A stretch of DNA of 64,000 nt. It comes from Actinomycetota bacterium. Lineage in GTDB: Bacteria > Actinomycetota > UBA4738. A program made the position numbers and the translations under genes. The DNA is taken from contig DATABA010000022.1 of assembly GCA_036259835.1 (NCBI GenBank), forward strand, positions 15,087 through 79,086, in the 5' to 3' direction. Under the pieces are notes generated by a model. It was not told the origin of the DNA. It made no database searches and saw nothing but the letters and a program-made list of their open reading frames with translations. How positions within the stretch are numbered: the first letter of the stretch is position 1; each line of letters starts with the position of its first letter. Shown piece by piece: positions 10,474-46,040 of the stretch.

Positions 10474-10537
10474 ACTTCGTGGAACCGTCCGCCTCCAAGG
10501 GTTGTACGGGTTGATGGGAGATCCAAAGGAGGCATTG

Positions 10538-11149: not shown

Positions 11150-11168
11150 GCTGCGCGCCGCCGCCCGG

Positions 11169-11753: not shown

Positions 11754-11826
11754 GCATGGATTATGCCGAACCCGCACCGATCTTCGCCCGCAGTCCACGT
11801 GCAGACTGCGCTACTACGTTGAGGGC

Positions 11827-12489: not shown

Positions 12490-12558
12490 GTTCGGCCGTA
12501 GGAGCGGCGTCGGCACCAGCTCCTCCAGGGCTGACAACCCCGTCCTCAGCGGTCATCA

Positions 12559-13914: not shown

Positions 13915-13928
13915 GGCGGACTGACCTC

Positions 13929-14837: not shown

Positions 14838-14860
14838 CGGTCGTTAGCCGTTTCCGGTCG

Positions 14861-14933
14861 TGCCCCCGGGAGGAATCGAACCTCCGACACACGGTTTAGG
14901 AAACCGTTGCTCTATCCACTGAGCTACGAGGGC
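14861..14933 (-). tRNA. tRNA-Arg (anticodon CCT)
   Basis: The reverse complement is GCCCTCGTAGCTCAGTGGATAGAGCAACGGTTTCCTAAACCGTGTGTCGGAGGTTCGATTCCTCCCGGGGGCA. It folds as a cloverleaf with anticodon loop TTCCTAA. Confidence 0.85.
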
Positions 14934-27734: not shown

Positions 27735-28496
27735 CTAGTGCGGCCCGAATGGGTTGGGGTCGATCCCTTCGTCCTGGAAGGTGGGGATGACAAGCACCTT
27801 CTTGCTCTGGTCGTCGAAGGCCACCGCGTTGGCGCACTGGCGCCCTTCGTAATCGCCCGGAGCGATCTCGGCGGTCCAATCATCGAAGTGGTGATCTTCG
27901 AGGACCTCCTCGGCGATCTGCAGGGATTGGTCCTGCGTCAAACAGGCGTTGTGTTCCGTGGCCGGCCCTTCCGTAGCAACTTCAAACATGCGCCTCACAA
28001 CCGCATCGCGCATCGCGATGAACCGCTTGGCCTCTCTGACGTAGTCATCGGGCAGATCTTGAAACCCGAGCCTCGTGCAGAGCCCATCGTCATCGCTGGG
28101 GAAGACGTGGATGGCGCCACCTTGCCCAGCGCATGCGGTCATCGCCGGTGCCGGACCGAGGTTCCCGAGATCTCCTCTGTTCCACAGTCGCGTACACACC
28201 TTCCCCGGGTGCTCGCCCGTGGTCGACACGATCGCGACGTTGGAGTCGTCGGTTGGCGCGTCGTGGCAGCCGATCCCGGCGGCGACCACCTGATCGGATT
28301 TCAGAAGGACGTAGCTCGTCGCTGCGACTCCGAGCAAGGCAGCGGGCAGTAGGATCACCGCCAGTCGCCGACGGCGTTTGCGATACGTCAGGCGATTTCG
28401 TTCCTTGGCTATCTCCTTCATGAGAGCTTCCTTTCTCAGCTCGAGCCGAGCGGGAGGAAGGTCCCTTGGGGAGGGTGGTGACAGCAGTTCTTTCAT
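27735..28496 (-). CDS. Putative single-pass anti-sigma factor with Cys-containing extracytoplasmic domain
   Basis: A 4-nt overlap with the upstream ECF sigma gene, a basic stretch plus a TM segment (RRRRLAVILLPAALLGVAATSYVLL), and an extracytoplasmic region of about 190 aa with 6 Cys. No family recognised. Confidence 0.45.
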   Translation of the reverse strand: MKELLSPPSPRDLPPARLELRKEALMKEIAKERNRLTYRKRRRRLAVILLPAALLGVAATSYVLLKSDQVVAAGIGCHDAPTDDSNVAIVSTTGEHPGKVCTRLWNRGDLGNLGPAPAMTACAGQGGAIHVFPSDDDGLCTRLGFQDLPDDYVREAKRFIAMRDAVVRRMFEVATEGPATEHNACLTQDQSLQIAEEVLEDHHFDDWTAEIAPGDYEGRQCANAVAFDDQSKKVLVIPTFQDEGIDPNPFGPH

Positions 28497-29113
28497 CCCT
28501 CGTCCTCGCTCGGTTGTGTGATGGAAGCTCCGGCCAGAGCGCTGCTTTCGTTGCTGTAGTGTCCGGTGCCGAGTGAAAGTTCGCGCAACCGCCGACGCGC
28601 CCGGGCAACGCGGGACTTGACCGTGCCCACAGGGATGCCCAGCGCGAGCCCTGCCTCTTCATAGCTCAGGTCGGACCACACCACGAGCGCCAGCGCCTCT
28701 TGCTCTTGCTCGGGTAGGTCGGCGACCATGTTCAACAGGTTATGCATGCGGCGCTCGTCGTCGAGTCTGTCGGCCGCGTCGTCTTCAGGTAGCAGCCTCG
28801 GCATCTCGGCCTGGACCCGCTGCAGTGCCGCGTCCCGCCTACGCGCTGAGCGCCGTTGGTTCCGCATAAGGTTGGTTGCCGTGCCTAAAAGCCAAGGACG
28901 CAAAGACTCTCCTGAGAGTTGGATCTCGTCCCTCCTGCGCCACGCCTCCAAGAAGGTGGCCGCCATCAGGTCCTCGGCTAGATCCCACTTGCCGACCCGG
29001 CGGAAGCAGTAGTTGTAGACAGCCTTCGCGTGGCGCTCGAATAGTTCGGCAAAAGCGGCGTCTGATCTGGCCGTCTGCTCCCACAGCTTCCTATCGGATG
29101 GGTACTCCATCAC
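28493..29113 (-). CDS. ECF-type RNA polymerase sigma factor
   Basis: AEDLMAATFLEAWRRR...LRPWLLGTATNLMRNQRR (region 2) and LSYEEAGLALGIPVGTVKSRVARARRRL (region 4). Confidence 0.85.
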   Translation of the reverse strand: MMEYPSDRKLWEQTARSDAAFAELFERHAKAVYNYCFRRVGKWDLAEDLMAATFLEAWRRRDEIQLSGESLRPWLLGTATNLMRNQRRSARRRDAALQRVQAEMPRLLPEDDAADRLDDERRMHNLLNMVADLPEQEQEALALVVWSDLSYEEAGLALGIPVGTVKSRVARARRRLRELSLGTGHYSNESSALAGASITQPSEDEG

Positions 29114-29838: not shown

Positions 29839-30966
29839 CTAAACCGGTACGAGAAGAGCTTCGTCGATCTGCCAGTGAACTTCCACTTGGCGGGAGATGA
29901 ACGTCGCTCTGGCGCTTGCCTGAGGCGTCCGAACGAAGAGCCGAATTCCTTCCTCTGTTCGAACGACGAACTTGATTACCGGCCCGAGGTAGATCGCCTC
30001 CTCAAGGGTTCCACGCAGGGCCATCTCGCGGCGATCGCCAGTTCCGCCTTGTCCGCTAGCGGGGCGGACGTATGTACGCTCGGGGCGAACGACGAGAGCG
30101 ATCGCATCTCCGCTGGCAAGACCCAGTCGATGAACAGATTTCGGGTCGAGGCGGATCGGGCGTCGCTCCGACCGGACCAGCAAGCTCTCCTCCACGTCCA
30201 GAGTACCTCGGAAGATGTTCGATTCGCCGATGAAGCTAGCCACAAACAAGGAACTCGGCTGTTCGTACAGCTCTTCACCAGTACCAGTTTGTTGAATCCT
30301 TCCCTTGTTGAAGACGGCGATGCGGTCGCTCATCGCCAAGGCTTCTTCCTGGTCGTGCGTTACATAGATGATTGTGACGCCGAGGTCTCGACTGATCTGC
30401 ATGATTTCTAATTGAAGGGCCTCGCGGAGTTGCTTGTCGAGAGCTCCCAAAGGCTCATCCATGAGAAGCACCGGAGGGTGGAACACTAGCGCGCGAGCCA
30501 AGGCGATCCGTTGCTGCTGCCCTCCGGAGAGCTGGCGCGGATAACGATCACCTAACTGCTCGAGTCGGACCAACCGAAGTGCCTCGTCGACCATGCGATG
30601 AATCTCGTGCCGAGGGAGCCGTCGCGCCTCGAGCGGAAACGCAACGTTCTCGGCGGCGGTCATGTGCGGAAACAAAGCGTAGTTCTGGAAGACCATCCCC
30701 AGGTTCCGCTTATGGGGCGGCATTCCGGTGAGGTCGCGACCGTCGAGGTTCACGCTTCCGGCGTGCGGATGAATGAATCCGGCGATAACCCGAAGCAGCG
30801 TCGTCTTTCCGGCGCCTGATGGGCCCAGAAGCGTGAGGAACTCGCCCGGCTGTACCTCCAGTGTGATGTCCTCGATCGCCACCTCGTCACCGTAGAGGCG
30901 TGTGACGCCTTCTACCGAAAGCGCCCCGACTTCGGTTCTCTCCGGCCGGATCACTCTGGTCGTCAA
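29839..30966 (-). CDS. ABC transporter ATP-binding protein (PotA/UgpC-like)
   Basis: [30 protein letters not shown] and a TOBE-like C-terminus. Trimmed from the 579-aa track ORF to TTG 30966, which overlaps the permease stop (TTGA). GTG 30954 is an alternative start. Confidence 0.85.
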
Positions 30967-31766
30967 CTGATCCTTTGCGCGCGCTTGCGAGGGAGTAGCA
31001 CGAGCATCAGCAGACCGAACGTGACCCCGGTCAATACGGTCGCCATTGCAGCGATCGTTGGCTCGATGACGCTCCGGACCTGTCCCCACATCACGACGGG
31101 AAGCGTTCGAACGACTGGGCTCGAGAGGAAGATGGACACGACCACCTCGTCCCAGGAGGTGATGAAAGCGAAGAGGGCCCCCGTGACGATGCTTGGCCTC
31201 GTCAGGGGCAGCGTTATCCGGAGGAATGTCCGGACGGGACCGGCGCCCAGGCTCCTTGCGGCGACCTCGAGCGCTGGATCTAGGTTCTGCAAACTGGCCC
31301 CGACGACGATGACCACCAGTGGGAGCGCGAGCGCGGTATGGGCAAGGACAAGTCCATGGAAAGTACCGATGAGCTTCCAATCTGAGTACACGAAGAACAT
31401 CCCAATAGCGACCACCACGACTGGTGTTACCAACGGAGACATCACAAGGCCGGAAATGGCGGCCCGCCCCGGGTACCGGCCTCGCACCAGTCCAAGCGCT
31501 GTGACTGTTCCGAGCGATGTCGCGAGACCAGCTGTGGCGACCCCGACTTTGAGACTGGTGACGAGTCCGGCTGTCCAACTGGGATCGTCAAACAAAGTCC
31601 CGTACCAGCGGATGCTAAAACGGGTTGGTGGGAATGTGAGCAGCCCGCCGGCCGAAAATGACATGGGAATGACGATGAGCGTCGGGACGATCAGAAGCAG
31701 GGCAACGAGTCCGGCATACCCATATATCGCGACGTTCCAGTCGAGGATGCGTTTGCCCGCCATCAA
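30963..31766 (-). CDS. ABC transporter permease (PotC-like)
   Basis: Six TM helices and the EAA loop EVAARSLGAGPVRTFLRITLPL. Confidence 0.8.
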   Translation of the reverse strand: MMAGKRILDWNVAIYGYAGLVALLLIVPTLIVIPMSFSAGGLLTFPPTRFSIRWYGTLFDDPSWTAGLVTSLKVGVATAGLATSLGTVTALGLVRGRYPGRAAISGLVMSPLVTPVVVVAIGMFFVYSDWKLIGTFHGLVLAHTALALPLVVIVVGASLQNLDPALEVAARSLGAGPVRTFLRITLPLTRPSIVTGALFAFITSWDEVVVSIFLSSPVVRTLPVVMWGQVRSVIEPTIAAMATVLTGVTFGLLMLVLLPRKRAQRIS

Positions 31767-32716
31767 TCTTGGGCAGGCCCGAAAGCTTCACTAATCCGGA
31801 CGAAGCGGCTTCCGACCCAGAGAAGGATGAGCGTCACAGCGAGAAGAGTTATGGCTAGGGCACTCCCCGTTCCGAACTGCAGACGCTCGGTAACCATGTT
31901 GACGACGAGTTCACTGAACATGGCATTGCGCGGGTTTCCGAGTAGCGAGGGAGTGATGTAGAAGCCTAGGGACAACACGAATACGAGGAGACACCCCGCC
32001 GCGACACCGGGGAGGCTTAGGGGCATGAAGACGCGGAGGAACGCTCTGGCGGCGCTCGCGCCCAACCCTTTCGCGGCCGGGATCAGGTCAGCATCGATTC
32101 GCCGCATCGCTGCGAAGACTGGCAAGACCATGAAGGGCAGGAGGATGTGGCTCATGCCGATCGTGACGCCGAGCGTGTTTCGCATTAGTGCCACGGGATG
32201 TTCAATGACGCCAAGCCGGAGCAACAGCGAGTTGATGACGCCAGTGTCGCCAAGCAGAACGGTCCAGGCATACGTTCGAACGAGCAAGCTCGACCAGAAC
32301 GGAACCAGTACCAAAGCCGCGAGCAGCGCTCGGAGCCGGTTTCCGCTGTGGTTCATGGCGTAGGCGTATGGGTAGCCAAGCGCGATACAAATCACTGTGA
32401 CGAGCAGAGATATTCGGATCGTCGTCCACAAGACTCTGGCGTAAACGGAAGATTCGACGAACACCAAGTAGTTCTCTGGCCCCGGATCGGTGAAGCTCCG
32501 GGCTCCCATTCGGAAGACAGGGAGCACGAAGAAGAGTGTCAGAAAGACGACCCCTGGAATCGCGAGAACGGCCCACCCATCGAGTAGCTTGCGCCGGGGC
32601 GGTTCCGCCGCTTCTGAGTTCCCGGTCAATTTGGCGAGCACCGGGCTACGACCAATCAGGTCTGAAGCCACTCCTGCCATCGCCGATCGACGGCGTCGAA
32701 ATTCTCGTCCCACCAA
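31763..32716 (-). CDS. ABC transporter permease (PotB-like)
   Basis: TM-rich, with the EAA loop PAAKGLGASAARAFLRVFMPL. The start may be the internal Met near 32680. Confidence 0.8.
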   Translation of the reverse strand: MVGREFRRRRSAMAGVASDLIGRSPVLAKLTGNSEAAEPPRRKLLDGWAVLAIPGVVFLTLFFVLPVFRMGARSFTDPGPENYLVFVESSVYARVLWTTIRISLLVTVICIALGYPYAYAMNHSGNRLRALLAALVLVPFWSSLLVRTYAWTVLLGDTGVINSLLLRLGVIEHPVALMRNTLGVTIGMSHILLPFMVLPVFAAMRRIDADLIPAAKGLGASAARAFLRVFMPLSLPGVAAGCLLVFVLSLGFYITPSLLGNPRNAMFSELVVNMVTERLQFGTGSALAITLLAVTLILLWVGSRFVRISEAFGPAQD

Positions 32717-33708
32717 ACGTCGTTGAAGCCTATGCCGGTCTCAACGTAGGACGTCGGAAGGTCGCGTTCCTTCGTCCGATCGACGTTGTTGACCGCTCCC
32801 TCGTTCGCAGGAGCGTACGCAATGTGCTTGCTGATCTCAGCGTTGTTCTTGTCTGACACGATCCATGAGATCAGCTGCATAGCTGCTCGAACGTTCTTCG
32901 AGCCCTTCGGGACCACCAAGTAATCGGCGGTGAGTATGTGTTGATCCCACATGATGTCGACGGGAGCGCCTTCCCGCTGGATATCGAAAATGCGGCCGTT
33001 CCAGCTCATTCCCATGGCTACTTCCCCGTCTGCGAGGAGCTGTGCCGACTGCGCGCCCGAGTCGTACCAGACGATCTGGTCCTTGACCGTGTCGAGTTTC
33101 GCGAACGCCCTGTCCAAGTCGAGCGGGTAGAGCTCATCTGCCTGAACACCATCCGCGAGGAGCGCCATCTCCAGGAGGCCCCAGGATGCGTAGTTGAAGG
33201 CCCCGCGTTTTCCAGGGAACTTCTTCAGATCAAAGAAGTCAGCGAAACTCGTTGGTTGCTTTCCAGCAAACGCGTCTGACCTATAACCGACGACGACCGA
33301 ATAGACGATATCTGGAACCCGGTATCCTCTGGTCGGGAAGAGATCCGACTGGAGCTCGTCGCAGGGAACGATCTTGCAATCGATGGGCTCGAGGACGTCG
33401 TGATCGCTCGCCAACCCGAAGTCGTTCCCGACTTCAACTACGTCCCATGTGACGTTTCCCGATTCAACCATGGCCTGGAGCTTCGCGTAGTCGGTGGGCT
33501 CCTCCTGGACAATCCTGACGTTCGGATTGGCCTTCATGAAGGGCTCCAGCCACGCGTTGGTCTGGGCCTGCTGATACGCGCCTCCAAAGCTTACGAAGGT
33601 CAACGTGACCGGCTCACCGCCTCGCCGCGTCTCCGGCCCTCCACAGGCCGCAGCGATCAGTGCCAGTACGGAAAAGGTCGTCGCGATTCTCCGCCAGGTC
33701 ATCCGCAC
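32656..33708 (-). CDS. Extracellular solute-binding lipoprotein (family 1, PotD/PotF-like)
   Basis: Lipobox VLALIAAACGG. It is about 350 aa and is the first gene of the ABC operon. Confidence 0.75.
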   Translation of the reverse strand: MRMTWRRIATTFSVLALIAAACGGPETRRGGEPVTLTFVSFGGAYQQAQTNAWLEPFMKANPNVRIVQEEPTDYAKLQAMVESGNVTWDVVEVGNDFGLASDHDVLEPIDCKIVPCDELQSDLFPTRGYRVPDIVYSVVVGYRSDAFAGKQPTSFADFFDLKKFPGKRGAFNYASWGLLEMALLADGVQADELYPLDLDRAFAKLDTVKDQIVWYDSGAQSAQLLADGEVAMGMSWNGRIFDIQREGAPVDIMWDQHILTADYLVVPKGSKNVRAAMQLISWIVSDKNNAEISKHIAYAPANEGAVNNVDRTKERDLPTSYVETGIGFNDVWWDENFDAVDRRWQEWLQT

Positions 33709-33742
33709 CTCCTGCCGACGTGTCCGATCGCAGCATAAGAGC

Positions 33743-33760
33743 TAACCAAGCGCTTGGTCA
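33743..33760. promoter_or_regulatory. Candidate TetR operator 2 (palindrome TAACCAAGCGCTTGGTCA)
   Basis: The core ACCAAGCGCTTGGT is a perfect 14-bp palindrome about 35 nt upstream of the SBP start. It matches the site at 34549 in 15/18 positions. Confidence 0.55.
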
Positions 33761-33824
33761 ACCGAGCCTCGCGGTCCGTGGACCTGCGGCGGGCCTAGCA
33801 GAAGCTCGCGGGTGGGGCGGTTCG

Positions 33825-34502
33825 CTACTTGCTGCCTCGTGTTGACCGTGAAAGGTTCGGCTCTTTCTGGCCGGAGGTACCCACGTCGCGTTCGGCTGCG
33901 ACGATCCGGTTGAACAGACTCGTGAGCAGGTGCTCGGTCTGAAGTGCCGGGTCGAGAACCTGCTGCTGAACGAGCCCGTCAGCTGCGGAAGCAAAGGCCT
34001 CTCCCACGCCGTGCGGGTCTAGTGAGATAAGGCTGAGCTCGTCGGCGACCTCGCGGAAAAGCGTGACGAACGGCTTCCGCCAGCGCGCGTACTCGCCGGC
34101 TAGGTGCTCCCGGACCTCTTCGTCGCCCAACGCGAACCAAAACAGCGCAAGGTGTACCCGCATGACTTCGATGGTCGCGGGTTCCGCCATCCAAGCGATG
34201 ACCGACCGGGCACGAGATTCCGCGGGACCAGCGCCATTGACGATCCGCTCCAGCGGCTCGACCCAGTCGCGCCTGGCGTGTTCGACCAGAGCTAGGACAA
34301 GGTCTCTCTTGTCCTTGAAGTGGTAATGGCACATGCCGTGCGAGACGCCTGCTATGGCCGCCACCCGGCGCGTGGTAAAGCGGTTGATTCCCTCTTCGGC
34401 CAGCACCTGGCGCGCAGCCTCGAGGATTCGACTACGCGTCTCTTCCCCACGACTAAGCCGCTCCGCTGAGGCGTTCCGCACGACCACGACAGAGTCCATC
34501 AT
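33825..34502 (-). CDS. TetR/AcrR-family transcriptional regulator
   Basis: HTH FTTRRVAAIAGVSHGMCHYHFKDKRDLV. Confidence 0.85.
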   Translation of the reverse strand: MMDSVVVVRNASAERLSRGEETRSRILEAARQVLAEEGINRFTTRRVAAIAGVSHGMCHYHFKDKRDLVLALVEHARRDWVEPLERIVNGAGPAESRARSVIAWMAEPATIEVMRVHLALFWFALGDEEVREHLAGEYARWRKPFVTLFREVADELSLISLDPHGVGEAFASAADGLVQQQVLDPALQTEHLLTSLFNRIVAAERDVGTSGQKEPNLSRSTRGSK

Positions 34503-34548
34503 GACGGAACTCGGCCCCCGTGCGGCTCACGCATCCGCCTCTCCCAGT

Positions 34549-34566
34549 TGACCAGACGCTTGGTCA
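34549..34566. promoter_or_regulatory. Candidate TetR operator 1 (TGACCAGACGCTTGGTCA)
   Basis: Inverted arms TGACCA/TGGTCA separated by 6 nt, about 47 nt upstream of the tetR start. The site lies in the divergent intergenic region shared with the 34722 operon. Confidence 0.55.
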
Positions 34567-34721
34567 GTTCTAGAGTCTGGACCTCCCTAGCCAGGGGTCG
34601 GAGGCATGCGAGCTGTGTGGGATCACGGTGGCGCTGCGTTGCGTCAGCGCCAGTGTCAGCTTCGGTGCTCGGCGCGCCGTGGTTTTCGCCCCCGGGGACC
34701 GATTCCACCTAATCCTCAGCA

Positions 34722-35528
34722 GTGCGGCCGCTTCGGCGCATGACCGAGCTCGACATGTGCGCTCGGACACATGACGACCTCGCCTCAAAGGCACTTCAGA
34801 TTGTGGAGCAAGCGTCGGCCATGGGCCTTTCTCTCCGAATCCTCGGAGGCGTGGTGATCCGCTGGTACGTGACGGTCGCTCGGGAGACTTACGACGTCCT
34901 GCGCCCGGTTCCGAACGACATCGATCTTCTCGCTCCGCTCAAGTCGAGCCATGCCATACGGAAAACGCTCACGTCATTGGGATACGAACCCGACGATCGG
35001 CTCATTGCTTGGCGCGGGGACCAGCGTCACCGTTACTGCGAGGCGTCGAACGGTGGAGGCGTGTACATCGACGTGTTCCTCGGCACGCCGCCCCAGTGTC
35101 ATCGACTGGAACTCGCGCACGCGCTGGCCACGCCGGGTCCGGCGCTGCCTCCCACCCTTTTGCTGCTTACGAAGCTCCAGATCGCATCCATCAACGAGAA
35201 GGACCTGATAGATGTGGGCTTCCTTCTCTTGGAGTCTCCGTCGGCGCTGACGAACGACGGCAGTGAGGCGTCCATATCGCTCGGATACTTGGCGGACGTT
35301 CTCCGCAGAGACTGGGGATTTCACCATACGGCGTTGGGCAATCTCCGGAAACTGTCAGAAAAGCTGGATTCTCTCTTTCCAGCGACTTTCCGTTCAGTGG
35401 TTGACGAGCGGATCAACGCACTGACCCGCGTTATTCAAGAGGCTCCGAAGACACTTCGCTGGAAGGTTCGGTCAAAGGTCGGCACCCGATGGCAGTGGTA
35501 CCAAGACGTCGAAGAGGTCGTCCGGTGA
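34722..35528 (+). CDS. Pol-beta-fold nucleotidyltransferase-like protein (uncharacterised NTase family)
   Basis: LRILGGVVIRWYV...RPVPNDIDLLAP...LTSLGY carries the GG...DxD pattern seen in PF14907-type and aminoglycoside NTases (pattern recognised by eye). Confidence 0.45.
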   Translation: MRPLRRMTELDMCARTHDDLASKALQIVEQASAMGLSLRILGGVVIRWYVTVARETYDVLRPVPNDIDLLAPLKSSHAIRKTLTSLGYEPDDRLIAWRGDQRHRYCEASNGGGVYIDVFLGTPPQCHRLELAHALATPGPALPPTLLLLTKLQIASINEKDLIDVGFLLLESPSALTNDGSEASISLGYLADVLRRDWGFHHTALGNLRKLSEKLDSLFPATFRSVVDERINALTRVIQEAPKTLRWKVRSKVGTRWQWYQDVEEVVR

Positions 35529-35541
35529 GGGAGAAGCTGGC

Positions 35542-36513
35542 ATGATCCGGCGGCCGAAGGCTCGGGCGAACCGTCGCCGACTGCTGTTCGTGACCGACCT
35601 TCACGGGAGCGACCTCACGTTCCGCAAACTCCTGAAGGCGCTCGAGGTGTGGCGCCCCGACGCCGTCATAGCGGGCGGAGATGTTGCTGGGAAAGCGATG
35701 GTCCCTGTCGTCGACCTCGGGGACAAGTTCCGCCTGAAGTGGATGGGGCAGGTCCACGAGTTCGCCAGTCGCGAGTTGTCCACTTTCCTGGAGAAGGTCG
35801 GCCAGGTCGGTTTCTATTGGCACATCGCACCCGTCGAAGAGATCGAAGCGATGCGCGACGACCCGGTCAGAACGAATCGCATCTTCGAGGAGGTGATTGC
35901 TCGTCGCTGGTCCGCTTGGCTCGAACGGCTGGAAGATCGCTGTCGCCAACTTCGGGTCCCGGCCTACGTCATGGCGGGCAATGACGACCCGTGGAGTCTG
36001 GATGCGGTCACCTTGGTTCAGCGCGAATGGGTCACTCCCGCCGATGGCGCAGTTGTTCCGGTTCTGGATCACTGGATGCTCGTCTCTTGTGGACTCGGAA
36101 ATCCGACGCCGTGGCAATGCCCTCGGGATGTCTCCGAGAGTGAGTTAGCCGACAAACTTCGAAGCATCACTGAGGGGCTAAAAGACTTCAGCAACGTCAT
36201 CGCCAACATCCACCCACCCCCATTCGATTCGACGCTCGATCTGGCACCGAAGCTCGATACGTCCGTTTCGCCGCCTCGGCCGGTCCCAGGCGAGATTGCT
36301 CCAGTCGGTAGCACAGCGGTAAGGGATTTCCTCGCCGACGCTCAGCCGCTGCTCAGTTTGCACGGCCACATTCATGAATCGCGGGCTGCTGTTCGGCTCG
36401 GGAGGACGTGGGCCGTCAATCCCGGGAGCGAATACGCGGAGGGCGTCCTCCGAGCGGCCCTCGTGACGGTCGAGCCATCCAGAGTCGTGAGTCATCAACT
36501 GGTGGCGGCATGA
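35542..36513 (+). CDS. Calcineurin-like metallophosphoesterase
   Basis: LLFVTDLHGS, AGGDVAGK, MAGNDDPW and LHGHIHES follow the canonical D-x-H / GD / GNH(D) / GH-x-H pattern. Confidence 0.75.
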   Translation: MIRRPKARANRRRLLFVTDLHGSDLTFRKLLKALEVWRPDAVIAGGDVAGKAMVPVVDLGDKFRLKWMGQVHEFASRELSTFLEKVGQVGFYWHIAPVEEIEAMRDDPVRTNRIFEEVIARRWSAWLERLEDRCRQLRVPAYVMAGNDDPWSLDAVTLVQREWVTPADGAVVPVLDHWMLVSCGLGNPTPWQCPRDVSESELADKLRSITEGLKDFSNVIANIHPPPFDSTLDLAPKLDTSVSPPRPVPGEIAPVGSTAVRDFLADAQPLLSLHGHIHESRAAVRLGRTWAVNPGSEYAEGVLRAALVTVEPSRVVSHQLVAA

Positions 36514-36528
36514 GAAAGGAGGCAGGCA

Positions 36529-38199
36529 GTGGAAACGGCTGCTCGATCGCGGAAATCTGACGACCAAGCACTCGATGTCTTCCTGCGGCAATCGTCGGGA
36601 TTGGTCCGAGAGCTCTCTATCTTCGATGCTGCGGTTTTTGGAGTGCTTGCAAGCGGGCTCTTCTTCTCCTTCATTTATTTCTTCCCATACCCGCAGTACA
36701 TCACGCCGGGGATTAACACCGTCCTGATGCTCGTCCTCGGCACGCTGGCCTCGTTACCCGTAATCATCTGCTATGCGGCGCTTGGCTCGGCGATGCCGAG
36801 AGCGGGCGGCGACTACCTGTACGACAGCCGGACGGTCTCTCCGGCACTGGGTTTCGCCATTCCACTTGGTATGGGGGCGTTCGTCTGGACCATCCTGTTT
36901 CCACTGGGCACATTCGTCATCGTCTCGTTTGGGCTCGGGCCCGTTCTCAACGCGGCTGCCTCGCAGTTCGGAATCGAAACCCTCACTGGATGGGCCAACG
37001 CGCTCCAGGGAACAACTGGACAGCTGATCACGACGATCGTTCTCGCATTGCTGGCGTGGTTGATCACCATCCGAGGAGTCCGGCTCTACCGGATCATCCA
37101 GCGTAGCGTCTTTCTTCCGGCGATCGTGGTGACGAACGTGGCGTTGTTGATCCAGCTTTTCGTCAGCTCAAACGACCGGTTTCGGCAGGCATTCGACCGG
37201 TTCCCAGCGAACGAAGCAGACGGCATCACCTACGCCGGCATCCTCTCAACCGCCCAGCAGAACGGCTGGCAGCCGCCGTCATTCAGCTGGGGAGACACGC
37301 TCCTCTGGATCCCCGTGATGCTGGGCGTCGTCCCATTCGTGGTCTACGCGACCGAGGGCATGCTAGGAGAGGTCAAACGCGCCCGTGACTTCGCCCGGTT
37401 GAGCCGAGCTCTCATCCTAGGGGCGCTCTATATCGGGATTGTCGTCTTTGGGCTCCTGTACTTCCTGTTCGAACGAATGGCGTCCCAGGAGTTCATCTCT
37501 GCGGCGTCGTTTCTCGTGAATGAGGAAATTATCGCGCTGCCATACGACCTCAACATCACATCCTTCAGCTCCATCGTGAACGACAACTTCTTTCTGGTTC
37601 TTGCGGTGTCGCTCGGGTTCATCGCGAGCGCCTTCCAACTCATGACCGCCGTGATGATGAATGAGACCCGGATCCTGGTCTCCATGGGGCTCGACCGCAC
37701 GCTCCCCGCGAAGTTCGCCGACGTGAACCCGAGGTTCCACGCGCCGATCTTCTCGGCTACCGTGTACGTTGCCCTCGTCCTGGGCATGACGCTGTGGTTC
37801 ACCTACGCGCCGGAGTGGTCCACGGTGTTCACGTATCTCAGCGTGTACGGCGGGCAGGGCGTATTGCTCTTCGGCTGCCTGGCAGCGTTCCTCCTCCCGA
37901 TCCGGGCGAGGGCGATCTACGAAGCCTCTCCCGTGGCGAGGTACCACATCGGGCGTCTTCCGCTGATCACGGTGATCAGTGCGCTCGGAATGATTCTGTA
38001 CGTGGCAAGCCTGTTCGTCATCGCCACCAACGACAAGGTCGGCCTCACCGGAGCGGGCCTCGGCTTGCCCGCCGACCCCCGCTGGCTCCTGATCGTGCCC
38101 GTCGTTTTCTTCCTCGCGGTCTTCTTTGCGTGGCAATGGGTCGAGAGGAGGCGAGGGATCGATACGAGGCTTGTCTTCGAGGCGGTCCCGCCCGAGTGA
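36529..38199 (+). CDS. APC-superfamily amino acid/polyamine permease
   Basis: A 556-aa protein with at least 12 TM helices. AALGSAMPRAGGDYLY is the APC signature region. Confidence 0.75.
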   Translation: METAARSRKSDDQALDVFLRQSSGLVRELSIFDAAVFGVLASGLFFSFIYFFPYPQYITPGINTVLMLVLGTLASLPVIICYAALGSAMPRAGGDYLYDSRTVSPALGFAIPLGMGAFVWTILFPLGTFVIVSFGLGPVLNAAASQFGIETLTGWANALQGTTGQLITTIVLALLAWLITIRGVRLYRIIQRSVFLPAIVVTNVALLIQLFVSSNDRFRQAFDRFPANEADGITYAGILSTAQQNGWQPPSFSWGDTLLWIPVMLGVVPFVVYATEGMLGEVKRARDFARLSRALILGALYIGIVVFGLLYFLFERMASQEFISAASFLVNEEIIALPYDLNITSFSSIVNDNFFLVLAVSLGFIASAFQLMTAVMMNETRILVSMGLDRTLPAKFADVNPRFHAPIFSATVYVALVLGMTLWFTYAPEWSTVFTYLSVYGGQGVLLFGCLAAFLLPIRARAIYEASPVARYHIGRLPLITVISALGMILYVASLFVIATNDKVGLTGAGLGLPADPRWLLIVPVVFFLAVFFAWQWVERRRGIDTRLVFEAVPPE

Positions 38200-38296
38200 G
38201 AAGCTCAGGAGTTCCAAAGGCTGCCGGCGTCAGTTGCCCAAAGTAGGCCGAAGGCCACCTCGCGGGCGTTGATAAGCGAGCCGTGAAAGGAACGCG

Positions 38297-39502
38297 ATGA
38301 CGTATTTCCCCATGGATGAGTACGAGCAACGGTGGAGTCGCGTATGGGATGCGATTCACTCCGCGGGGTTCGAGACCGCGCTGGTCTGGGGGCAGAGCGG
38401 CGGAAATTACGAGCGGTGCAATGACATCCTCTACCTGACGAACTACTACTCGAACCAGTCAGGTCATGCGTACGACTCAAGCGTGAGACTGGCGAGCAGT
38501 TACTCGGCGGCATTGTTCGCAAATGGAGATTCGCCGGAACTCTTCGCCGACCAACCTGACTACCCTGAAGACCTTCTTGCAGTCGGTCGTGTTTCGTCCG
38601 ATCGAAACCTCATCCGTGCTGTGACTGCCGGACTCCGGCAGAGGAGCGCCACGGGAAAGGTACTCTCGGTCGGACACGACTTCCTTCCCGTGAAGTACGC
38701 CCGCCTCCTCGAAGACGCTTTCCCCGGGATTGAGTTCACTTACGACGATGAGCTAGTGCGCGACGTCCGACGATACAAGTCGACGTTCGAGCTCGAGTGC
38801 ATACGTGAAGCTGGTGAAACAGCTTCCGCAGCCCTCCAGGCGCTGATGGAAACCGCCATGCGTGGCGGTACACAGGCTGACGCCGCAGCCGCCGGAATGG
38901 CGGAGCTCGCTCGACGAGGAGGCTTCCCCCACATGATTCCCGTCTCGAGCGGGGCTACGATTCACCGATTCACCGGCGACCCGATCGCGGGCTTCTCTCG
39001 AGAAATCGTCATGGCTCCTGGCGACCTCGTCCGTGCGTGGGTCTACGGACCAATCTGGCAGGGGTACTGGCTCGATCCTGGGCGAACTGGCATCGTCGGT
39101 CGAGCTGGCACTCGTCGACAGCGTGAGTTGATTCGAACCGCTACCGACATCACCCATCGCCTGATGGAGTCGGTTACCCCCGGTTCCCGGGTGCTCGATG
39201 TCGTCGCTCTCGGCGAGCGACTGACTACAGAGAGCGGCTCTCAGGACGATCCCGTATCAAACATGTTCCCGTTGTACGGGCACGGAGTCGGGATGTTTTG
39301 GGAACGACCCACGCTTGGGGAAGGGATGCTCGGCGAGCCCGGGACAGAAGAGCGATACGCGTACTTCCACTCCGGCCAAACGTGCACCATCGAAGTCTTC
39401 CTGAGTTGGCCGGGCGTGGGAAGCGCTGGGATCGAGGAGTGCTTCATCGTGCAGGACGGAAAAAACGAACTACTTACTACGACTGATCTGGAGTGGTGGT
39501 GA
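38297..39502 (+). CDS. M24-fold (creatinase/prolidase-like) hydrolase, paralog A
   Basis: Creatinase-like N-domain (MDEYEQRWSRVWDAI...ALVWG) and a pita-bread C-domain (YWLDPGRT, YGHGVGM, TIEVF, GIEECFIV). Confidence 0.7.
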   Translation: MTYFPMDEYEQRWSRVWDAIHSAGFETALVWGQSGGNYERCNDILYLTNYYSNQSGHAYDSSVRLASSYSAALFANGDSPELFADQPDYPEDLLAVGRVSSDRNLIRAVTAGLRQRSATGKVLSVGHDFLPVKYARLLEDAFPGIEFTYDDELVRDVRRYKSTFELECIREAGETASAALQALMETAMRGGTQADAAAAGMAELARRGGFPHMIPVSSGATIHRFTGDPIAGFSREIVMAPGDLVRAWVYGPIWQGYWLDPGRTGIVGRAGTRRQRELIRTATDITHRLMESVTPGSRVLDVVALGERLTTESGSQDDPVSNMFPLYGHGVGMFWERPTLGEGMLGEPGTEERYAYFHSGQTCTIEVFLSWPGVGSAGIEECFIVQDGKNELLTTTDLEWW

Positions 39503-39547
39503 GGAGTAATGAACGCGTTCCCGTTGGAGGGCGCCCCGAAGCTTGGG

Positions 39548-40741
39548 TCACCACCATTCGAGTTCGGTCGTGGTGAGCAGTTCATTTCGCTCCCGTCCCA
39601 CGATGAAATTCTGTTCCACACCCGCGCTGCCCACGCCCGGTCGATACAGAAATGTCTCGGCCGTAACGGTCTGGCCTTCGTGAAACGCCGTCACCTCGTT
39701 CTTCCACCCTTCGGTGAAGTAAGGCTCCTCCCAGTAAAGCCCAATCCCATGGCCGTACAACGGGAACATCCTTGCCGCTTGGTCATCCTCCGTACCGGCC
39801 TCCCTCCGCAGCTGGGAGCCGAGATTCACGATGTCCTTCACGCGGACCCCCGGACGGATCGCCTCCATCACGCGAGAGACGATGTCATTGGCCGCCCCGA
39901 TGAGCGCTCGCTGATCCGGACGCGGCTTCCCACCAACCACGGCCGTCCGGCCAGGATCGCACCAGTAACCTTGCCAAGCGGGGCCGTACACCCAGGCGCG
40001 GACCATATCACCGTCGCTCATCGAGATGGCGGGCGACGAGCCAGTAATCGGATCGCCCGCGAAGTGGTACATATCGTTGCCGCTGGCAACGGGAACCATG
40101 TGCGGAAATCCACCGCGCCGCACAAGCTCCGATGCACCGGCCGCAGCGGCCTCCGCTTGTGTCCCGCCGCGCACTGCCCGCTCCATCAAGGCGGTCATCG
40201 CCGCGGATACGGCGACGCCGGCCTCGCGGTAGCAGTCGAGCTCGCGCTGGGTCTTGTGAAGCCTCACGTCACGAACCAGGCGGTCGTCAGCGACAAATTC
40301 AACGCCGGGAAGAGCTTCCGTCAGAAGGCGGTAATACTTCGCGGGGAGGAAATCCTCGCCAACCAGGGCCACGCGACCCTCCGTGATTCCGCGCGCCTTG
40401 AGCACTTCTGCGACCGTGACGAGAACGTTCTCACCCCAGACGACGCGCTCAACCGCGATCGGGAGGAGCTCCGAAGGGTAGTCGGGTTCGTCGGCAACCA
40501 ACAGGGGGACGTCACGCTCGTGCATCAGGACGGCGCTGAATCCGAGTCCCGTCCACCAATCCGTGTCGTAGTCGTGTCCAGACTGACTCGAGTAGTAGTT
40601 GGTAAGGTACAGAAGGTCGCCGTGTCTCTCGTACGTACCGGCCGTCCGTCCCCAGACCAGCGCGGTCGCTATTCCCTTAACCTCCATCGCGTCGTAGATG
40701 CGACGCCATCGCTCCTCGTACTCGTCCTGAGGGAAGTACAC
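39548..40741 (-). CDS. M24-fold (creatinase/prolidase-like) hydrolase, paralog B
   Basis: By eye about 50-55% identical to paralog A along the whole length, including the identical C-terminus NELLTTT(D/E)LEWW. Convergent with A. Confidence 0.7.
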   Translation of the reverse strand: MYFPQDEYEERWRRIYDAMEVKGIATALVWGRTAGTYERHGDLLYLTNYYSSQSGHDYDTDWWTGLGFSAVLMHERDVPLLVADEPDYPSELLPIAVERVVWGENVLVTVAEVLKARGITEGRVALVGEDFLPAKYYRLLTEALPGVEFVADDRLVRDVRLHKTQRELDCYREAGVAVSAAMTALMERAVRGGTQAEAAAAGASELVRRGGFPHMVPVASGNDMYHFAGDPITGSSPAISMSDGDMVRAWVYGPAWQGYWCDPGRTAVVGGKPRPDQRALIGAANDIVSRVMEAIRPGVRVKDIVNLGSQLRREAGTEDDQAARMFPLYGHGIGLYWEEPYFTEGWKNEVTAFHEGQTVTAETFLYRPGVGSAGVEQNFIVGRERNELLTTTELEWW

Positions 40742-40874
40742 GATCCGCCTCCTCTTGCTGGTTCACTCACGGCTACGGCGTGGGCGAACGCCGGGCGGAA
40801 TCGTAGATCACCGGGGGTGCGATTTGCCGCCGACATCGCTGGTCGTTCCCACGCTCGTTTCGGAGGCGGGTGAG

Positions 40875-41744
40875 ATGAGACCGCTCCCGATCCTGGCGGT
40901 CCAGGCCGCTCCAGTCCCGTGGGAGGTGGACGCGACGTGGGAGAAATTCGAAGTGACGACGAGACGACTCGTCCAAGCGTTCCCGAGCACGAAACTGGTC
41001 GTGTATCCGGAGCTGTTTCTATCGGCGATCGGGCCCACGACGATCCCTCCCCGAGCCGGCTATTCGGTCGAAAGGGTGGCGCAGCGCATCCCTGGACCCT
41101 TGACGGAGCGGCTCGGCGAGCTTGCCGAAGAACTCCAAATCTGGCTCGTGCCTGGATCGGTCTACGAGATCGGAGACGCCGGCCGAATCTACAACACAGC
41201 CGTCGCCGTTCGACCCGACGGCTCCATCGCGGCGCGCTATCGAAAGATTTTTCCGTGGCGGCCATGGGAGCGGTCATTCCCCGGCGAGGACCTCGTCCTG
41301 TTCGACATCGATGATGTGGGTCGTGTGGGCCTGATGATCTGCTACGACGGCTGGTTCCCTGAAGTCGCGCGGAATCTTGCTTGGCTAGGGGCTGAACTGA
41401 TTCTCCAGCCTGCTGCCACCTGGACCTCCGACAGAGAGCAGGAGCTCGTTCTCGTCCGCGCTCAGGCCATCACCAATCAAGTGATCGTTGTCAACGTCAA
41501 CGTCGGCGGTGGTTACGGGGAAGGGCGCAGCTTAGTGGTGGATCCAGAGGGGCACGTCCTTCAAGCTGCTGGCGGCGGGGAAGAAGTAATTACGGACGTC
41601 CTCGATTTCGACGGCGTGCGAAGAGTGAGGCAGTACGGCTCTGTAGGGATGAACAGGCTGTGGGAAGAAGTGCGTGAGCGCCAGAGGATAAGGCTTCCCA
41701 TGTATGGCGGCTCGCTTCCCGGCATGATTCAACCATCCGCGTAA
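40875..41744 (+). CDS. Carbon-nitrogen hydrolase (nitrilase superfamily amidase)
   Basis: The E-K-C triad contexts VVYPELF, RYRKIFPW and MICYDGWFPE are present. Trimmed to ATG 40875. Confidence 0.75.
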   Translation: MRPLPILAVQAAPVPWEVDATWEKFEVTTRRLVQAFPSTKLVVYPELFLSAIGPTTIPPRAGYSVERVAQRIPGPLTERLGELAEELQIWLVPGSVYEIGDAGRIYNTAVAVRPDGSIAARYRKIFPWRPWERSFPGEDLVLFDIDDVGRVGLMICYDGWFPEVARNLAWLGAELILQPAATWTSDREQELVLVRAQAITNQVIVVNVNVGGGYGEGRSLVVDPEGHVLQAAGGGEEVITDVLDFDGVRRVRQYGSVGMNRLWEEVRERQRIRLPMYGGSLPGMIQPSA

Positions 41745-44648: not shown

Positions 44649-46040
44649 CTAGCCGAACTCCTCGGCGACCAGGTGCCGCTCTACGCTCAGATTGCCGCTC
44701 TCAGGCGATTGCGTTATCCGGTCGAACGCCAGGAGCGTTGGCTGTGGTCGCGGCTCGAAGTAAAGGATCTGAGCGGAGAGAGGGATCCCACCTTCCTGCG
44801 TGAACACCGTGAAACCGGATCCGCCGGTGGTTCCCGTGCGGAGAAAAATGGTGCCGTGCATCATCCGCGCTGCGGGCTGGTGGAAGTGTCCGGAGATCAC
44901 AACCGGAACGCGGCCCGCGACGGCCTCGGCCATTCGGTCGTCGTGCACGGCGACCACCGCGGGTGGCGTCAAGCCCATTTGCACCTCCCTAAGGATCCGC
45001 TCCCCGGCCTGTCTCGCTTGCGCCTCGAACTCGGCGTCGTTCACCGTGGTTTCCTTGTTGGGCGTGAAGACCGGGTGTCGCAGCCCATAGAACGTCACCC
45101 CCGCCTTCTGCACGGACGCGCCGTTCAGGACCGTGACGTTCGGGACCCGCGCCATCGCCGCTTCGATGGACGGCCCATCATGATTGCCGGGAACGAAGAG
45201 GTACGGGCGGTTGAAGCCCGGGACGAACCTGGCGATGAGGTCCTCGGCCGGCGTTCCGAACGATGTGAGGTCGCCCGTATCGACCACAACGTCCACGTCG
45301 AACGCCTCGGCGAGCTGTCGGGCGAACTCCATCCCAAGTGGCGACAGGTGGACGTCAGCGATATGGAGGACCCGAATCTGATCGCCCGGAAATTGCCTCG
45401 TCTGGATCCGGCTGTACACGCGAGCGGCGCCGCTGACGATCCGTTGGAGCTCCAGACGGAAGGCGTCGATCCGAGCCGCGGCGGTCTCCACTTCTCCCAC
45501 GAGCCGCGGCGCGAGTGCCAGCGAACCGGAGAACCGCGGGGCCCGAAACGCGTTGCTGTCGTAGGTGACCCAGGCGGCCAGCTCGCTTCCACCGACCACG
45601 GTCACCGGAACCACCAGCGATAGCAGAACCGCTCGCCAGTTCGTTCGAAACACCAGCACGGCCAGGAGCAGCGCCCCGAGGATTCCCATCCCGAGCAGTT
45701 GAAACCCAAAGGGAACCACGTGCCTTCGGGCGGAATCACCGATGTCGTCGGCGAGCTGACGAACGCTTTGGTCGCGGACCAGCCTCGTGAGTTCCTGGAT
45801 CTCAACTTCCCGAAGCGTGGCGCGAAACGACAGTGGAGGTGCGTGCGTATCGGCGGTAACGCGGCCGAGAGGAGGAAGCACGATCTCCGTCTGCCCGCTC
45901 CCAAATGCGCCCGAAAGTTCGACGTCGAAGGGTCCGAGTGCGGCGCCTCGTTTCGCCCCGACCGTGACCCCCAGCCATGTGCCGGCCAGTCCGACGCCTG
46001 CCACGGCGAGCAGCATCACGGTTCGTTTGCCGAGCTTCAT
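44649..46040 (-). CDS. Membrane-anchored metallophosphoesterase
   Basis: N-terminal TM helices, then VLHIADVHLS, DTGDLTSFG, VPGNHD and ISGHFH. Confidence 0.7.
   Translation of the reverse strand: MKLGKRTVMLLAVAGVGLAGTWLGVTVGAKRGAALGPFDVELSGAFGSGQTEIVLPPLGRVTADTHAPPLSFRATLREVEIQELTRLVRDQSVRQLADDIGDSARRHVVPFGFQLLGMGILGALLLAVLVFRTNWRAVLLSLVVPVTVVGGSELAAWVTYDSNAFRAPRFSGSLALAPRLVGEVETAAARIDAFRLELQRIVSGAARVYSRIQTRQFPGDQIRVLHIADVHLSPLGMEFARQLAEAFDVDVVVDTGDLTSFGTPAEDLIARFVPGFNRPYLFVPGNHDGPSIEAAMARVPNVTVLNGASVQKAGVTFYGLRHPVFTPNKETTVNDAEFEAQARQAGERILREVQMGLTPPAVVAVHDDRMAEAVAGRVPVVISGHFHQPAARMMHGTIFLRTGTTGGSGFTVFTQEGGIPLSAQILYFEPRPQPTLLAFDRITQSPESGNLSVERHLVAEEFG

Follow-up and report, generated by a model that had tools for sequence, protein, structure and literature searches.

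A candidate TetR-controlled amine uptake and hydrolysis module in Actinomycetota and its relatives across bacteria and archaea

Introduction

ATP-binding cassette (ABC) importers of the Atu4243, Pf622 and PA0602-AgtB-PA4985 (AgtABCD) type, whose characterized solute-binding proteins (SBPs) bind gamma-aminobutyric acid (GABA) and 5-aminovalerate (PMC11113362; PMC3656012), are the closest described relatives of one part of the gene module analyzed here. This module occupies positions 29839-41744 of a 64,000-nt stretch of the genome of an Actinomycetota bacterium (UBA4738; assembly GCA_036259835.1, contig DATABA010000022.1, positions 15,087-79,086 of the forward strand), which is referred to below as the window. 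In addition to the importer, it encodes a TetR family regulator, a nucleotidyltransferase (NTase), a metallophosphoesterase (MPE), an APC-superfamily permease, two paralogous M24-fold hydrolases (M24_A and M24_B) and a carbon-nitrogen (C-N) hydrolase of the nitrilase superfamily. The importer shares with Atu4243 and AgtABCD-type systems the full-length similarity of the SBP, the Arg and aromatic residues of the binding pocket and the PotA/B/C-like components. In contrast, the regulator of the described systems is GntR (Atu4232) or the two-component AgtSR rather than TetR, and their descriptions mention no linkage to genes for M24, C-N hydrolase, NTase or MPE proteins.

Other parts of the module recall different described pathways. 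Agmatine and polyamine catabolism (SpeB/GbuA, AguA-AguB, acetylpolyamine amidohydrolase, SpdH) resembles it in the predicted succession of import, C-N hydrolysis and release of an amine or omega-amino acid, and sister loci that contain the APC and MPE genes carry agmatinase, HDAC and SpdH homologs. Unlike these pathways, the window encodes no agmatinase, AguA, HDAC or SpdH and has noncanonical M24 proteins and an amidase-like C-N hydrolase, whereas known polyamine pathways include neither an NTase nor an MPE. The ectoine degradation route comprises the M24 enzyme DoeA/EutD, the DoeB deacylase, the DoeD class III aminotransferase and the DoeC aldehyde dehydrogenase. It is similar in that an M24-fold enzyme hydrolyzes a C-N bond of a non-peptide and is followed by an amidohydrolase, and class III aminotransferase and aldehyde dehydrogenase genes are present in two of the related loci described below (L050 and L052); it differs in its DoeB-type second hydrolase, which in the module is replaced by a nitrilase-superfamily protein, and in that the module has no Ehu/Ueh-type transporter. 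Creatinase, a metal-free M24 enzyme, has in common with the M24 proteins of the module a length of about 400 aa, the combination of a pita-bread domain with Creatinase_N (recognized in M24_B) and a departure from the canonical dinuclear metal site, but the match is marginal (E 5.6e-4), the module proteins keep four of the five metal ligands and there are no sarcosine-oxidizing genes near the module. Finally, ANT(2'')-Ia and LnuA share with the NTase the Pol-beta fold, the G[GS]...DxD...D signature and the size class of ~180-270 aa, but the identity is 12-16%, the helical C-terminal domain of the module NTase is larger and different, and its context is catabolic, not one of resistance.

The module had been pointed out in an original prediction, made from the nucleotide sequence without database searches, as a TetR-controlled uptake and hydrolysis system that matches no described pathway. 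All eleven genes listed there are present among the open reading frames (ORFs), with Pfam domains as described, and the combination indeed has no described counterpart: none of the proteins reaches an NCBIfam equivalog cut-off, the homologs carry generic names, the nearest MPE structures are unannotated and literature searches returned nothing on the combination. NCBIfam, Pfam, PDB and the searchable literature likewise yielded no function for the gene set or for its MPE and NTase subfamilies. We propose, with middling confidence, that the genes make up a TetR-repressed regulon with two promoters that would scavenge modified-polyamine or guanidino-amine cations together with their omega-amino acid relatives. 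A system of this kind, a regulated catabolic cluster, is known; the combination of enzymes is new. The grouping of the genes appears to exceed chance because the combination recurs in independent genomes and because a palindrome is found only at two promoter-like sites of the module.

Conservation of the gene neighborhood

Fifty-five loci, numbered below with the prefix L, were collected from species-representative genomes searched with M24_A and the MPE and from contigs that encode close homologs. One of the two nearest relatives of the module, L046 on a metagenome contig, is the best match; it contains the NTase, MPE, APC permease, M24 and C-N hydrolase genes in the same order as the window (58, 68, 74, 73 and 72% identity, respectively), with a PucR/PmfR-like regulator divergent from the operon, and lacks TetR, the ABC genes and the second M24. 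In the other, L001 from an Actinomycetota metagenome-assembled genome (MAG), two M24 genes adjoin an orthologous ABC importer (identities of 73% for the SBP, 71% for the PotB-like permease, 73% for the PotC-like permease and 60% for the ATPase), and there is no MPE and no NTase. Because L046 carries the five-gene operon alone and L001 carries the M24 and ABC genes alone, the module of the window is, to judge from gene order, a lineage-specific fusion of two submodules, an L046-type operon and an L001-type M24 plus ABC unit, under TetR.

Related arrangements are common in Solirubrobacterales, where four loci (L002, L004, L019 and L048) show the order NTase-APC-MPE-M24-C-N hydrolase-HDAC together with a LacI regulator, and a fifth (L007) has APC-MPE-M24. 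A PotD-like SBP follows, and a second M24 of the clade found in the window is present, in L004, L019 and L048. The order Aminotran_3-APC-MPE-M24-NTase is found in a Bacillota MAG (L050). Lack of co-conservation, which the original prediction had named as the observation that would count against it, is thus refuted by the L046 gene order, by the loci of the Solirubrobacterales type and by the association of the ABC importer with two M24 genes in L001.

The most widespread element is the APC-MPE unit. Among the loci analyzed together, MPE and APC genes are neighbors in 28 of 29, and an NTase gene is nearby in 24 of the 29. The unit is seen in Solirubrobacterales, Gaiellales, other Actinomycetota, Chloroflexota and a Bathyarchaeota MAG and, usually with the NTase, extends across Actinomycetota, Thermomicrobiota, Bacillota, haloarchaea and the Bathyarchaeota MAG. 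Two carriers are defined species. In the haloarchaeon Halobellus limi CGMCC 1.10331, the order is MPE-'hypothetical'-APC, beside genes for IclR, an iron-containing alcohol dehydrogenase and an aldehyde dehydrogenase, and the 'hypothetical' protein is an NTase homolog; the locus tags are DV707_RS16305 for the MPE, DV707_RS18515 for the NTase and DV707_RS16315 for the APC permease. In the cultured bacterium Thermomicrobium roseum DSM 5159 (L056; TRD_RS12760-12770), the order is APC-MPE-C-N hydrolase. The last of these genes (9963-11771; TRD_RS12770), directly after APC-MPE, encodes a 602-aa protein with two nitrilase-superfamily matches, and genes for a GcvT-like aminomethyltransferase and an SBP are found upstream. 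On this comparison, TetR and the ABC genes lie outside the widely conserved core, and the NTase-MPE pair accompanies the APC permease, not the hydrolases.

Gene organization and predicted regulation

The features of the module are as follows.

29839..~30954, minus strand: ABC transporter ATPase, PotA-like, with TOBE domain (ABC_tran 2.1e-37, TOBE_2 4.7e-10; start at 30930 or 30954)
30963..31766, minus strand: ABC permease, PotC-like (BPD_transp_1 1.1e-13)
31763..32716, minus strand: ABC permease, PotB-like (BPD_transp_1 4.3e-07; real start probably downstream of 32716)
32656..33708, minus strand: lipoprotein SBP of the Atu4243/Pf622/AgtB family (SBP_bac_8, PDB matches)
33732..33761, minus strand: promoter-like site of the ABC operon; the palindrome at 33744-33759, AACCAAGCGCTTGGTC, overlaps the -35 box and the spacer
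33825..34502, minus strand: tetR, TetR family with BetI-type C-terminal domain (TetR_N 3.3e-13, 49.6 bits; TetR_C_6 1.2e-08)
34548..34576, plus strand: promoter-like site of the NTase operon; the palindrome at 34550-34565, GACCAGACGCTTGGTC, overlaps the -35 box
34722..35528, plus strand: Pol-beta-fold NTase with helical C-terminal domain (invariant motifs, AlphaFold 2 model)
35542..36513, plus strand: MPE with an insertion of ~90 residues (Metallophos PF00149, 29.7 bits against a cut-off of 21.5)
36529..38199, plus strand: divergent APC-superfamily permease (AA_permease PF00324, 31.5 bits against a cut-off of 24.6)
38297..39502, plus strand: M24_A, creatinase/prolidase-fold hydrolase (Peptidase_M24 6.6e-18)
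39491..39559, no strand assigned: hairpin between the convergent M24 genes (-33.6 kcal/mol, z = -3.4)
39548..40741, minus strand: M24_B, paralog of M24_A (Peptidase_M24 2.6e-24, Creatinase_N 1.9e-06)
40875..41744, plus strand: nitrilase-superfamily C-N hydrolase (amidase), with ATG at 40875 (CN_hydrolase PF00795 2.5e-35, 122.5 bits)

The palindrome GACCAAGCGCTTGGT, of 15-16 nt, occurs with at most two mismatches at only two places in the window, 33744-33759 and 34550-34565; the two copies are near-identical and flank tetR. A consensus promoter scan of 12.8 kb yielded four sites, two of which coincide with the palindromes. One of them, on the minus strand (33761-33732; TTGACC-18-TATGCT), precedes the SBP start by 24 nt. 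The other, on the plus strand (34548-34576; TTGACC-17-TAGAGT), is oriented towards the NTase operon and is located upstream of tetR, at a distance of 48 nt from its start codon. At both sites, the -35 hexamer TTGACC is inside the palindrome. An overlap of a palindrome with the -35 box is the classic layout for a TetR-type repressor, and its occurrence at both promoter-like sites argues for a single regulon and supports control of the ABC operon, tetR and the NTase-MPE-APC-M24_A genes by one TetR through these predicted operators.

The genes of the NTase operon are closely spaced, with gaps of 13, 15 and 97 nt between NTase and MPE, MPE and APC, and APC and M24_A, respectively. M24_B, which is on the minus strand, converges with M24_A and diverges from the C-N hydrolase gene across 130 nt; therefore, the right-hand part of the module is not a single operon, and the C-N hydrolase gene is a transcription unit of its own. 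Accordingly, the control by TetR that the original prediction had extended to the module as a whole holds, at the level of predicted operators, for the ABC and NTase operons and is not supported for M24_B and the C-N hydrolase, whose divergent region has no operator-like site. Both M24 proteins end in ...LEWW-stop, and their last codons form the 12-bp inverted repeat that closes the hairpin in the 45-nt gap between the two genes; this hairpin may act as a bidirectional terminator that is produced by conservation at the protein level. Control by a riboswitch was considered and rejected because no guanidine or other riboswitch matched the region at E <= 1 or eight related loci at the gathering score.

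The ABC importer and its binding protein

The original prediction had assigned the importer to the PotD type, which holds for the fold of the SBP but not for its closest relationship. The ATPase scores 364 against a cut-off of 355.6 for the potA subfamily model TIGR01187, and the NCBIfam equivalogs PotA (366/482), PotB (189/348) and PotC (150/326) remain below their cut-offs. For the SBP, the scores against the PotD and PotF equivalogs are far below the thresholds (69 bits/582 and 26.7/636, respectively). Its matches in PDB include sensor scaffolds derived from Pf622 (E 3e-85 and 2e-84) and Atu4243 (E 4e-74), compared to 1e-16 for PotD, and the full-length identity is ~57% to Pf622 and ~50% to Atu4243, with residues 35-348 aligned. 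Pf622 of Pseudomonas fluorescens is the scaffold of the GABA sensor iGABASnFR, and its R205A variant, in which the response to GABA is abolished, serves as the non-binding control (bioRxiv 10.1101/322578). In the residue-level alignment, R239 of the SBP corresponds to the carboxylate-binding R205 of Pf622 and Y136 to F102, which is a Tyr in Atu4243 as well, and a Phe is found at the position of Pf622 Y137. Because the characterized relatives of the SBP bind GABA and 5-aminovalerate, the most likely cargo of the importer is a GABA-like omega-amino acid or something closely derived from one. We also observe another polyamine-type ABC system in the window (1460-~5600, plus strand), which consists of a PotA-like ATPase (ABC_tran and TOBE_2) and an SBP_bac_8 protein.

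The APC permease, MPE and NTase

The NTase-metallophosphoesterase pair named in the original prediction is backed, for the NTase, by invariant motifs and the predicted fold and, for the MPE, by motifs and fold. The NTase scores only 16.6 bits against PF14907 (NTP_transf_5; cut-off 31.2), and few of its homologs carry a precomputed match to this family, but G42, D66xD68 and D117 are invariant among 47 homologs, and the C-terminal domain is rich in invariant residues. The AlphaFold 2 model has a predicted local distance difference test score (pLDDT) of 91.7, and a Foldseek search identified 5uvd, ANT(2'')-Ia and LnuA as the nearest folds, with further matches to TENT5 and CCA-adding enzymes; the resemblance to ANT(2'')-Ia and LnuA is weak, with template modeling (TM) scores of 0.35-0.56 and ~12-16% identity. 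The family is large: an initial impression of rarity, based on the 64 matches of a word-indexed search, was discarded when an exhaustive profile search returned 3140 representatives at 50% identity. The homologs seen are unnamed.

The MPE retains intact DxH, GD, GNDD, H and GHxH motifs, the third of which departs from the usual GNH[DE] by having Asp for His, and D19xH21, G46-D47, G146-N147-D148-D149, H224 and G275-H276-x-H278 are invariant among 43 homologs. Its AlphaFold 2 model (pLDDT 94.5) is closest to aq_1956 and TT1561, two uncharacterized structural-genomics proteins; more than 5400 related proteins were found at 90% clustering, and no functional literature was found on PF14582, PF14907, TT1561 or aq_1956. 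Another metallophosphoesterase, of 463 aa and unrelated to the MPE, is encoded 3 kb downstream of the module (44649-46040, minus strand; Metallophos 1.7e-12), with several ORFs without Pfam matches in between.

The APC permease is divergent, and its profile matches Asc-1, CAT1, LAT2, xCT and ApcT weakly (E 2e-11 to 4e-6), with no assignment to a narrower subfamily. It ends in a subfamily-specific C-terminal tail (38140-38199; ...GIDxxLxFxxVPPE-COOH), a form of which, G[IV]D[IL]xLx[FY]xE[IV]PPE-COOH, is common to 31 MPE-linked APC homologs despite overall identities of 23-37%. The tail is kept in T. roseum (..EVPAE), in Halobellus (..EIPKD) and in an alphaproteobacterial APC protein without an MPE nearby, and is missing from the APC protein of L054 that is not linked to an MPE. 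The possibility that the tail is a docking motif for the MPE is weakened by L018, where the APC protein has the tail and there is no MPE within 21 kb.

Conservation decreases steeply along the triad, being higher for the MPE (35-69% identity) than for the NTase and much lower for the APC permease (23-37% outside the closest relatives). Together with the many invariant residues of the NTase, this gradient suggests that the NTase-MPE pair acts on a constant acceptor. One explanation, which we consider unlikely, is that APC, MPE and NTase constitute a self-contained regulated transporter, in which the NTase would reversibly nucleotidylate the permease or a constant small partner and the MPE would reverse the modification, the hydrolases being lineage-specific cargo. 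The MPE-APC adjacency and the proximity of the NTase, which hold whatever the neighboring enzymes, are in line with this explanation, as are the far better conservation of the MPE than of the APC permease, the invariant residues of the NTase C-terminal domain, the invariant cytoplasmic tail of the APC subfamily and the fact that the NTase is often a separate transcript unit. However, the same tail is found on the L018 APC protein, the APC-MPE-C-N hydrolase locus of T. roseum has no annotated NTase of the family nearby, and the tight coupling with the M24 and C-N hydrolase genes in the L046 operon suggests a shared pathway. Furthermore, we know of no MPE that removes a nucleotidyl group from a protein.

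A more specific form of the catabolic reading is tentative and, taken as a whole, somewhat doubtful. It holds that the APC-MPE-NTase triad is an unrecognized uptake unit shared across domains of life, in which the ANT-like enzyme would transiently attach a nucleotidyl group to the compound taken up (an amine or amino alcohol) or to the permease and a dedicated phosphodiesterase would then process the product, and, jointly, that the M24 proteins discussed next are a new type of hydrolase. In that second part, the M24 clade of the window would represent a new enzyme that hydrolyzes amidino- or acyl-amines, probably at a mononuclear site and possibly as an A/B hetero-oligomer, and that replaces the agmatinase-family ureohydrolases.

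The M24 and C-N hydrolases

M24_A and M24_B are 57% identical and contain the pita-bread domain (PF00557 scores of 65.7 and 86.6 bits, respectively, against a cut-off of 23), whereas Creatinase_N is recognized in M24_B (28.8 bits) and falls below the cut-off of 22 in M24_A (17.5). In both proteins and their entire clade, the first metal-binding Asp (D209 of Pyrococcus prolidase) is replaced by Trp within the motif GDxVRxWxYGPxWQGYWxDPGRT, and the remaining D, H, E and E are kept, so that the five-ligand dinuclear-site signature of M24 metallopeptidases is incomplete. Given the retention of four of the five ligands, a mononuclear metal site is likely in both predicted enzymes. M24_A and M24_B are far from every NCBIfam equivalog, including prolidase, ectoine hydrolase, DddP and MetAP; in particular, the ectoine hydrolase models TIGR02993 and NF038259 give 22-41 bits against cut-offs of 575-613. 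The homologs carry the pipeline name 'Xaa-Pro peptidase' only.

M24_A is the ortholog of the M24 protein of the L046 operon, and M24_B is closest to M24 genes of L052, L047 and L001. In L050 and the Solirubrobacterales loci, the corresponding position of the operon is taken by a second, canonical M24 clade. M24 genes come in pairs in L001, L009, L010 and L014-16 and on plasmids of Agrobacterium and Rhizobium, and this pairing is compatible with a predicted M24_A/M24_B hetero-oligomer. On the plasmids, Trp-type M24 homologs of 38-41% identity form a convergent pair around a VOC-family gene (L057, Rhizobium tumorigenes plasmid, 8992-11846; L058, Agrobacterium tumefaciens pAtAF1_95, 11992-14877), near GntR regulators, PxpABC 5-oxoprolinase-like genes, a D-amino-acid transaminase and an amino-acid ABC transporter. 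This looks like an uncharacterized plant-associated, perhaps opine-like, catabolic island.

The C-N hydrolase was predicted to be a nitrilase-superfamily amidase with an intact E-K-C triad, and the CN_hydrolase match and the residues E46, K124 and C156, read from the translation, agree with this. Its nearest solved relatives are the Nit2 omega-amidase, PH0642, formamidase and aliphatic amidase, and none of the equivalogs is reached (AguB 61.5/410, formamidase 86.3/406, aliphatic amidase 85.6/427, deaminated-glutathione amidase 84.7/355). The C-N hydrolase proteins of Solirubrobacterales show a weak AguB-type match. In L046, which encodes the homolog with 72% identity, the M24 and C-N hydrolase genes overlap by 4 nt and are translationally coupled.

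The uneven distribution of the parts raises the possibility of chance juxtaposition, whereby unrelated pieces that serve no common pathway would have come together: a GABA importer and the TetR that goes with it, a cassette for transport, Xaa-Pro peptidases with a housekeeping role and an omega-amidase. TetR and the ABC genes are indeed absent from L046-L048 and MPE and NTase from L001, M24_B and the C-N hydrolase are separate transcription units without an operator, and public annotation presents the M24 homologs as Xaa-Pro peptidases. Nevertheless, we regard this explanation as quite improbable: the two promoters have operator-like palindromes in common, M24 genes are linked both to the ABC importer and to APC-MPE, and C-N hydrolase genes to APC-MPE, in independent genomes, and the M24 clade lacks one of the canonical metal ligands.

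Substrate clues from neighboring genes

The neighbors of the APC-MPE unit in other genomes point to the chemistry of amines. Three loci, L052, L054 and L055, encode agmatinase-subfamily ureohydrolases beside or inside the unit, two of which score high enough for TIGR01230; the order in L055 is NTase-APC-agmatinase-MPE. Ureohydrolase homologs are located beside the unit in L033, L036 and L038. HDAC-type, acetylpolyamine-amidohydrolase-like deacetylases are present in L002, L004, L019, L048 and L052, a urease cluster in L054, and an amidase-signature amidase, class III aminotransferases and aldehyde dehydrogenases beside the unit elsewhere. In both nearest relatives of the module, a flavoprotein with a twin-arginine translocation (Tat) signal adjoins the M24 gene (L001, 7901-9817, minus strand; L046, 14791-16686, minus strand); these proteins, of 631-638 aa, are 76% identical, and their sole strong solved relative is SpdH of Pseudomonas aeruginosa (E 1.6e-28). 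The window has no such flavoprotein. An arginine 2-monooxygenase route (arginine to 4-guanidinobutyramide, 4-guanidinobutyrate and GABA) was rejected because the flavoprotein is SpdH-like, has a Tat signal and is absent from the window.

Collectively, the neighboring enzymes make up the repertoire of polyamine, agmatine and acyl-polyamine catabolism towards 4-aminobutanal and GABA, which fits the GABA-type SBP and the PmfR-like regulator of L046. The substrate class that the original prediction had guessed, a guanidino-, ureido- or N-carbamoyl-amine or a polyamine conjugate, is in good agreement with the agmatinase, urease, HDAC, amidase, SpdH-like, aminotransferase and aldehyde dehydrogenase genes at these other loci. 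APH/choline-kinase-like kinases also adjoin agmatinase-family genes (L052, 1-1854; L054, 5604-6533). The L052 kinase is paired with a class III aminotransferase, for which the best models are of the kinase-fused PRK06148/06149 type; this suggests an amino-alcohol kinase/phospho-lyase pair, which may bear on why a phosphoesterase travels with the permease. That lombricine-type phosphodiesters or aminoglycosides are substrates, which would explain the MPE, the NTase and the kinase neighbors, is pure speculation.

The kinases are also relevant to a detoxification or resistance function, in which the ANT-like NTase would inactivate a cationic antibiotic (aminoglycoside-, lincosamide- or streptothricin-like), TetR would sense the drug, and the hydrolases and the MPE would dismantle or recycle it. 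TetR regulators often control resistance genes, the nearest folds of the NTase are ANT(2'')-Ia and LnuA, APH-family kinases are encoded in L052 and L054, and hydrolases of guanidino groups might suit streptomycin-like drugs. This function is very unlikely, however, given that the structural similarity is weak (see above), both transporters are of importer types (an SBP-dependent ABC system and an APC permease), the neighbors in related loci are nutrient-catabolic (aminotransferases, aldehyde dehydrogenases, urease) and the SBP is close to GABA binders. Anti-phage defense by nucleotide signaling, with the NTase as synthase, the MPE as degrader and the membrane protein as effector, is hardly credible: beyond a superficial likeness of a Pol-beta NTase, a phosphodiesterase and a membrane protein to signaling defense systems, PADLOC found no significant match for the NTase, M24 or C-N hydrolase and marginal ones for the MPE and APC, the unit sits in catabolic operons with metabolite-responsive regulators (TetR, PucR, LacI, AsnC, IclR), and the fold of the NTase resembles small-molecule ANTs more closely than cGAS/CD-NTases.

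Among the genes around the module, an extracytoplasmic function (ECF)-type sigma factor gene (28493-29113) overlaps by 4 nt a 253-aa ORF without Pfam match, which possibly encodes its anti-sigma factor; both lie within 27735-29113 on the minus strand, a short distance upstream of where the ABC operon ends. Two class III adenylate/guanylate cyclase genes are present further away (12559-13914 and 47490-48695, both on the plus strand), the second of which encodes a protein fused to a MerR helix-turn-helix and an adenylate-cyclase regulatory domain.

Predicted function and implications

Under the scavenging regulon that we favor, TetR would free both promoters upon binding the substrate or a GABA-like product, and the APC permease would import a cationic, amino-acid-like amine. 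The M24 enzymes would then cleave a C-N bond, by deamidination or deacylation, standing in for the agmatinase of the sister operon, and any carbamoyl or amide group left would be stripped by the C-N hydrolase. GABA-like omega-amino acids that belong to this route would enter through the ABC system. Most likely, the NTase would add a nucleotidyl group to a constant acceptor, which may be the permease or a hydroxyl on the amine taken up, and the MPE would hydrolyze the product. Our confidence in each single step is lower than in the scheme as a whole.

Several points weigh against this scheme. Every chemical step is inferred, and the substrate, ligand and transcript assignments derive from sequence. 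No precedent for an NTase and a phosphoesterase in catabolism was found in the searchable literature. The palindrome scan detected no operator-like site in the 130-bp region between M24_B and the C-N hydrolase gene. The similarity of the M24 proteins to creatinase (7yto, E 5.6e-4) does not exceed that to prolidases (E 1e-14). In a test of ten large ORFs of the window, no urease, GABA transaminase or aldehyde dehydrogenase turned up near the module. Finally, distant APC-MPE-NTase loci sit with LacI, enolase-superfamily and zinc-containing alcohol dehydrogenase genes, which indicates other substrate classes, so the triad is not confined to the chemistry of amines and guanidines.

Soils harbor Thermoleophilia and related Actinomycetota in abundance, but these bacteria are poorly cultured and their acquisition of organic nitrogen is little understood. 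The module ties organocation transport to a ligand-deficient M24 clade, an amidase, an ANT-like NTase and an orphan MPE subfamily, and assignment of its substrate would annotate thousands of proteins that are currently labeled 'hypothetical' or 'Icc-related'. The system is experimentally tractable because cultured carriers of the APC-MPE unit exist, namely, Halobellus limi, which also has the NTase, and Thermomicrobium roseum, which also has a C-N hydrolase. Knowledge of the substrate could also reveal a new route of polyamine or guanidine nitrogen turnover, and an uptake-coupled nucleotidylation/phosphodiesterase step, if true, would be a logic that has not been described for nutrient catabolism.

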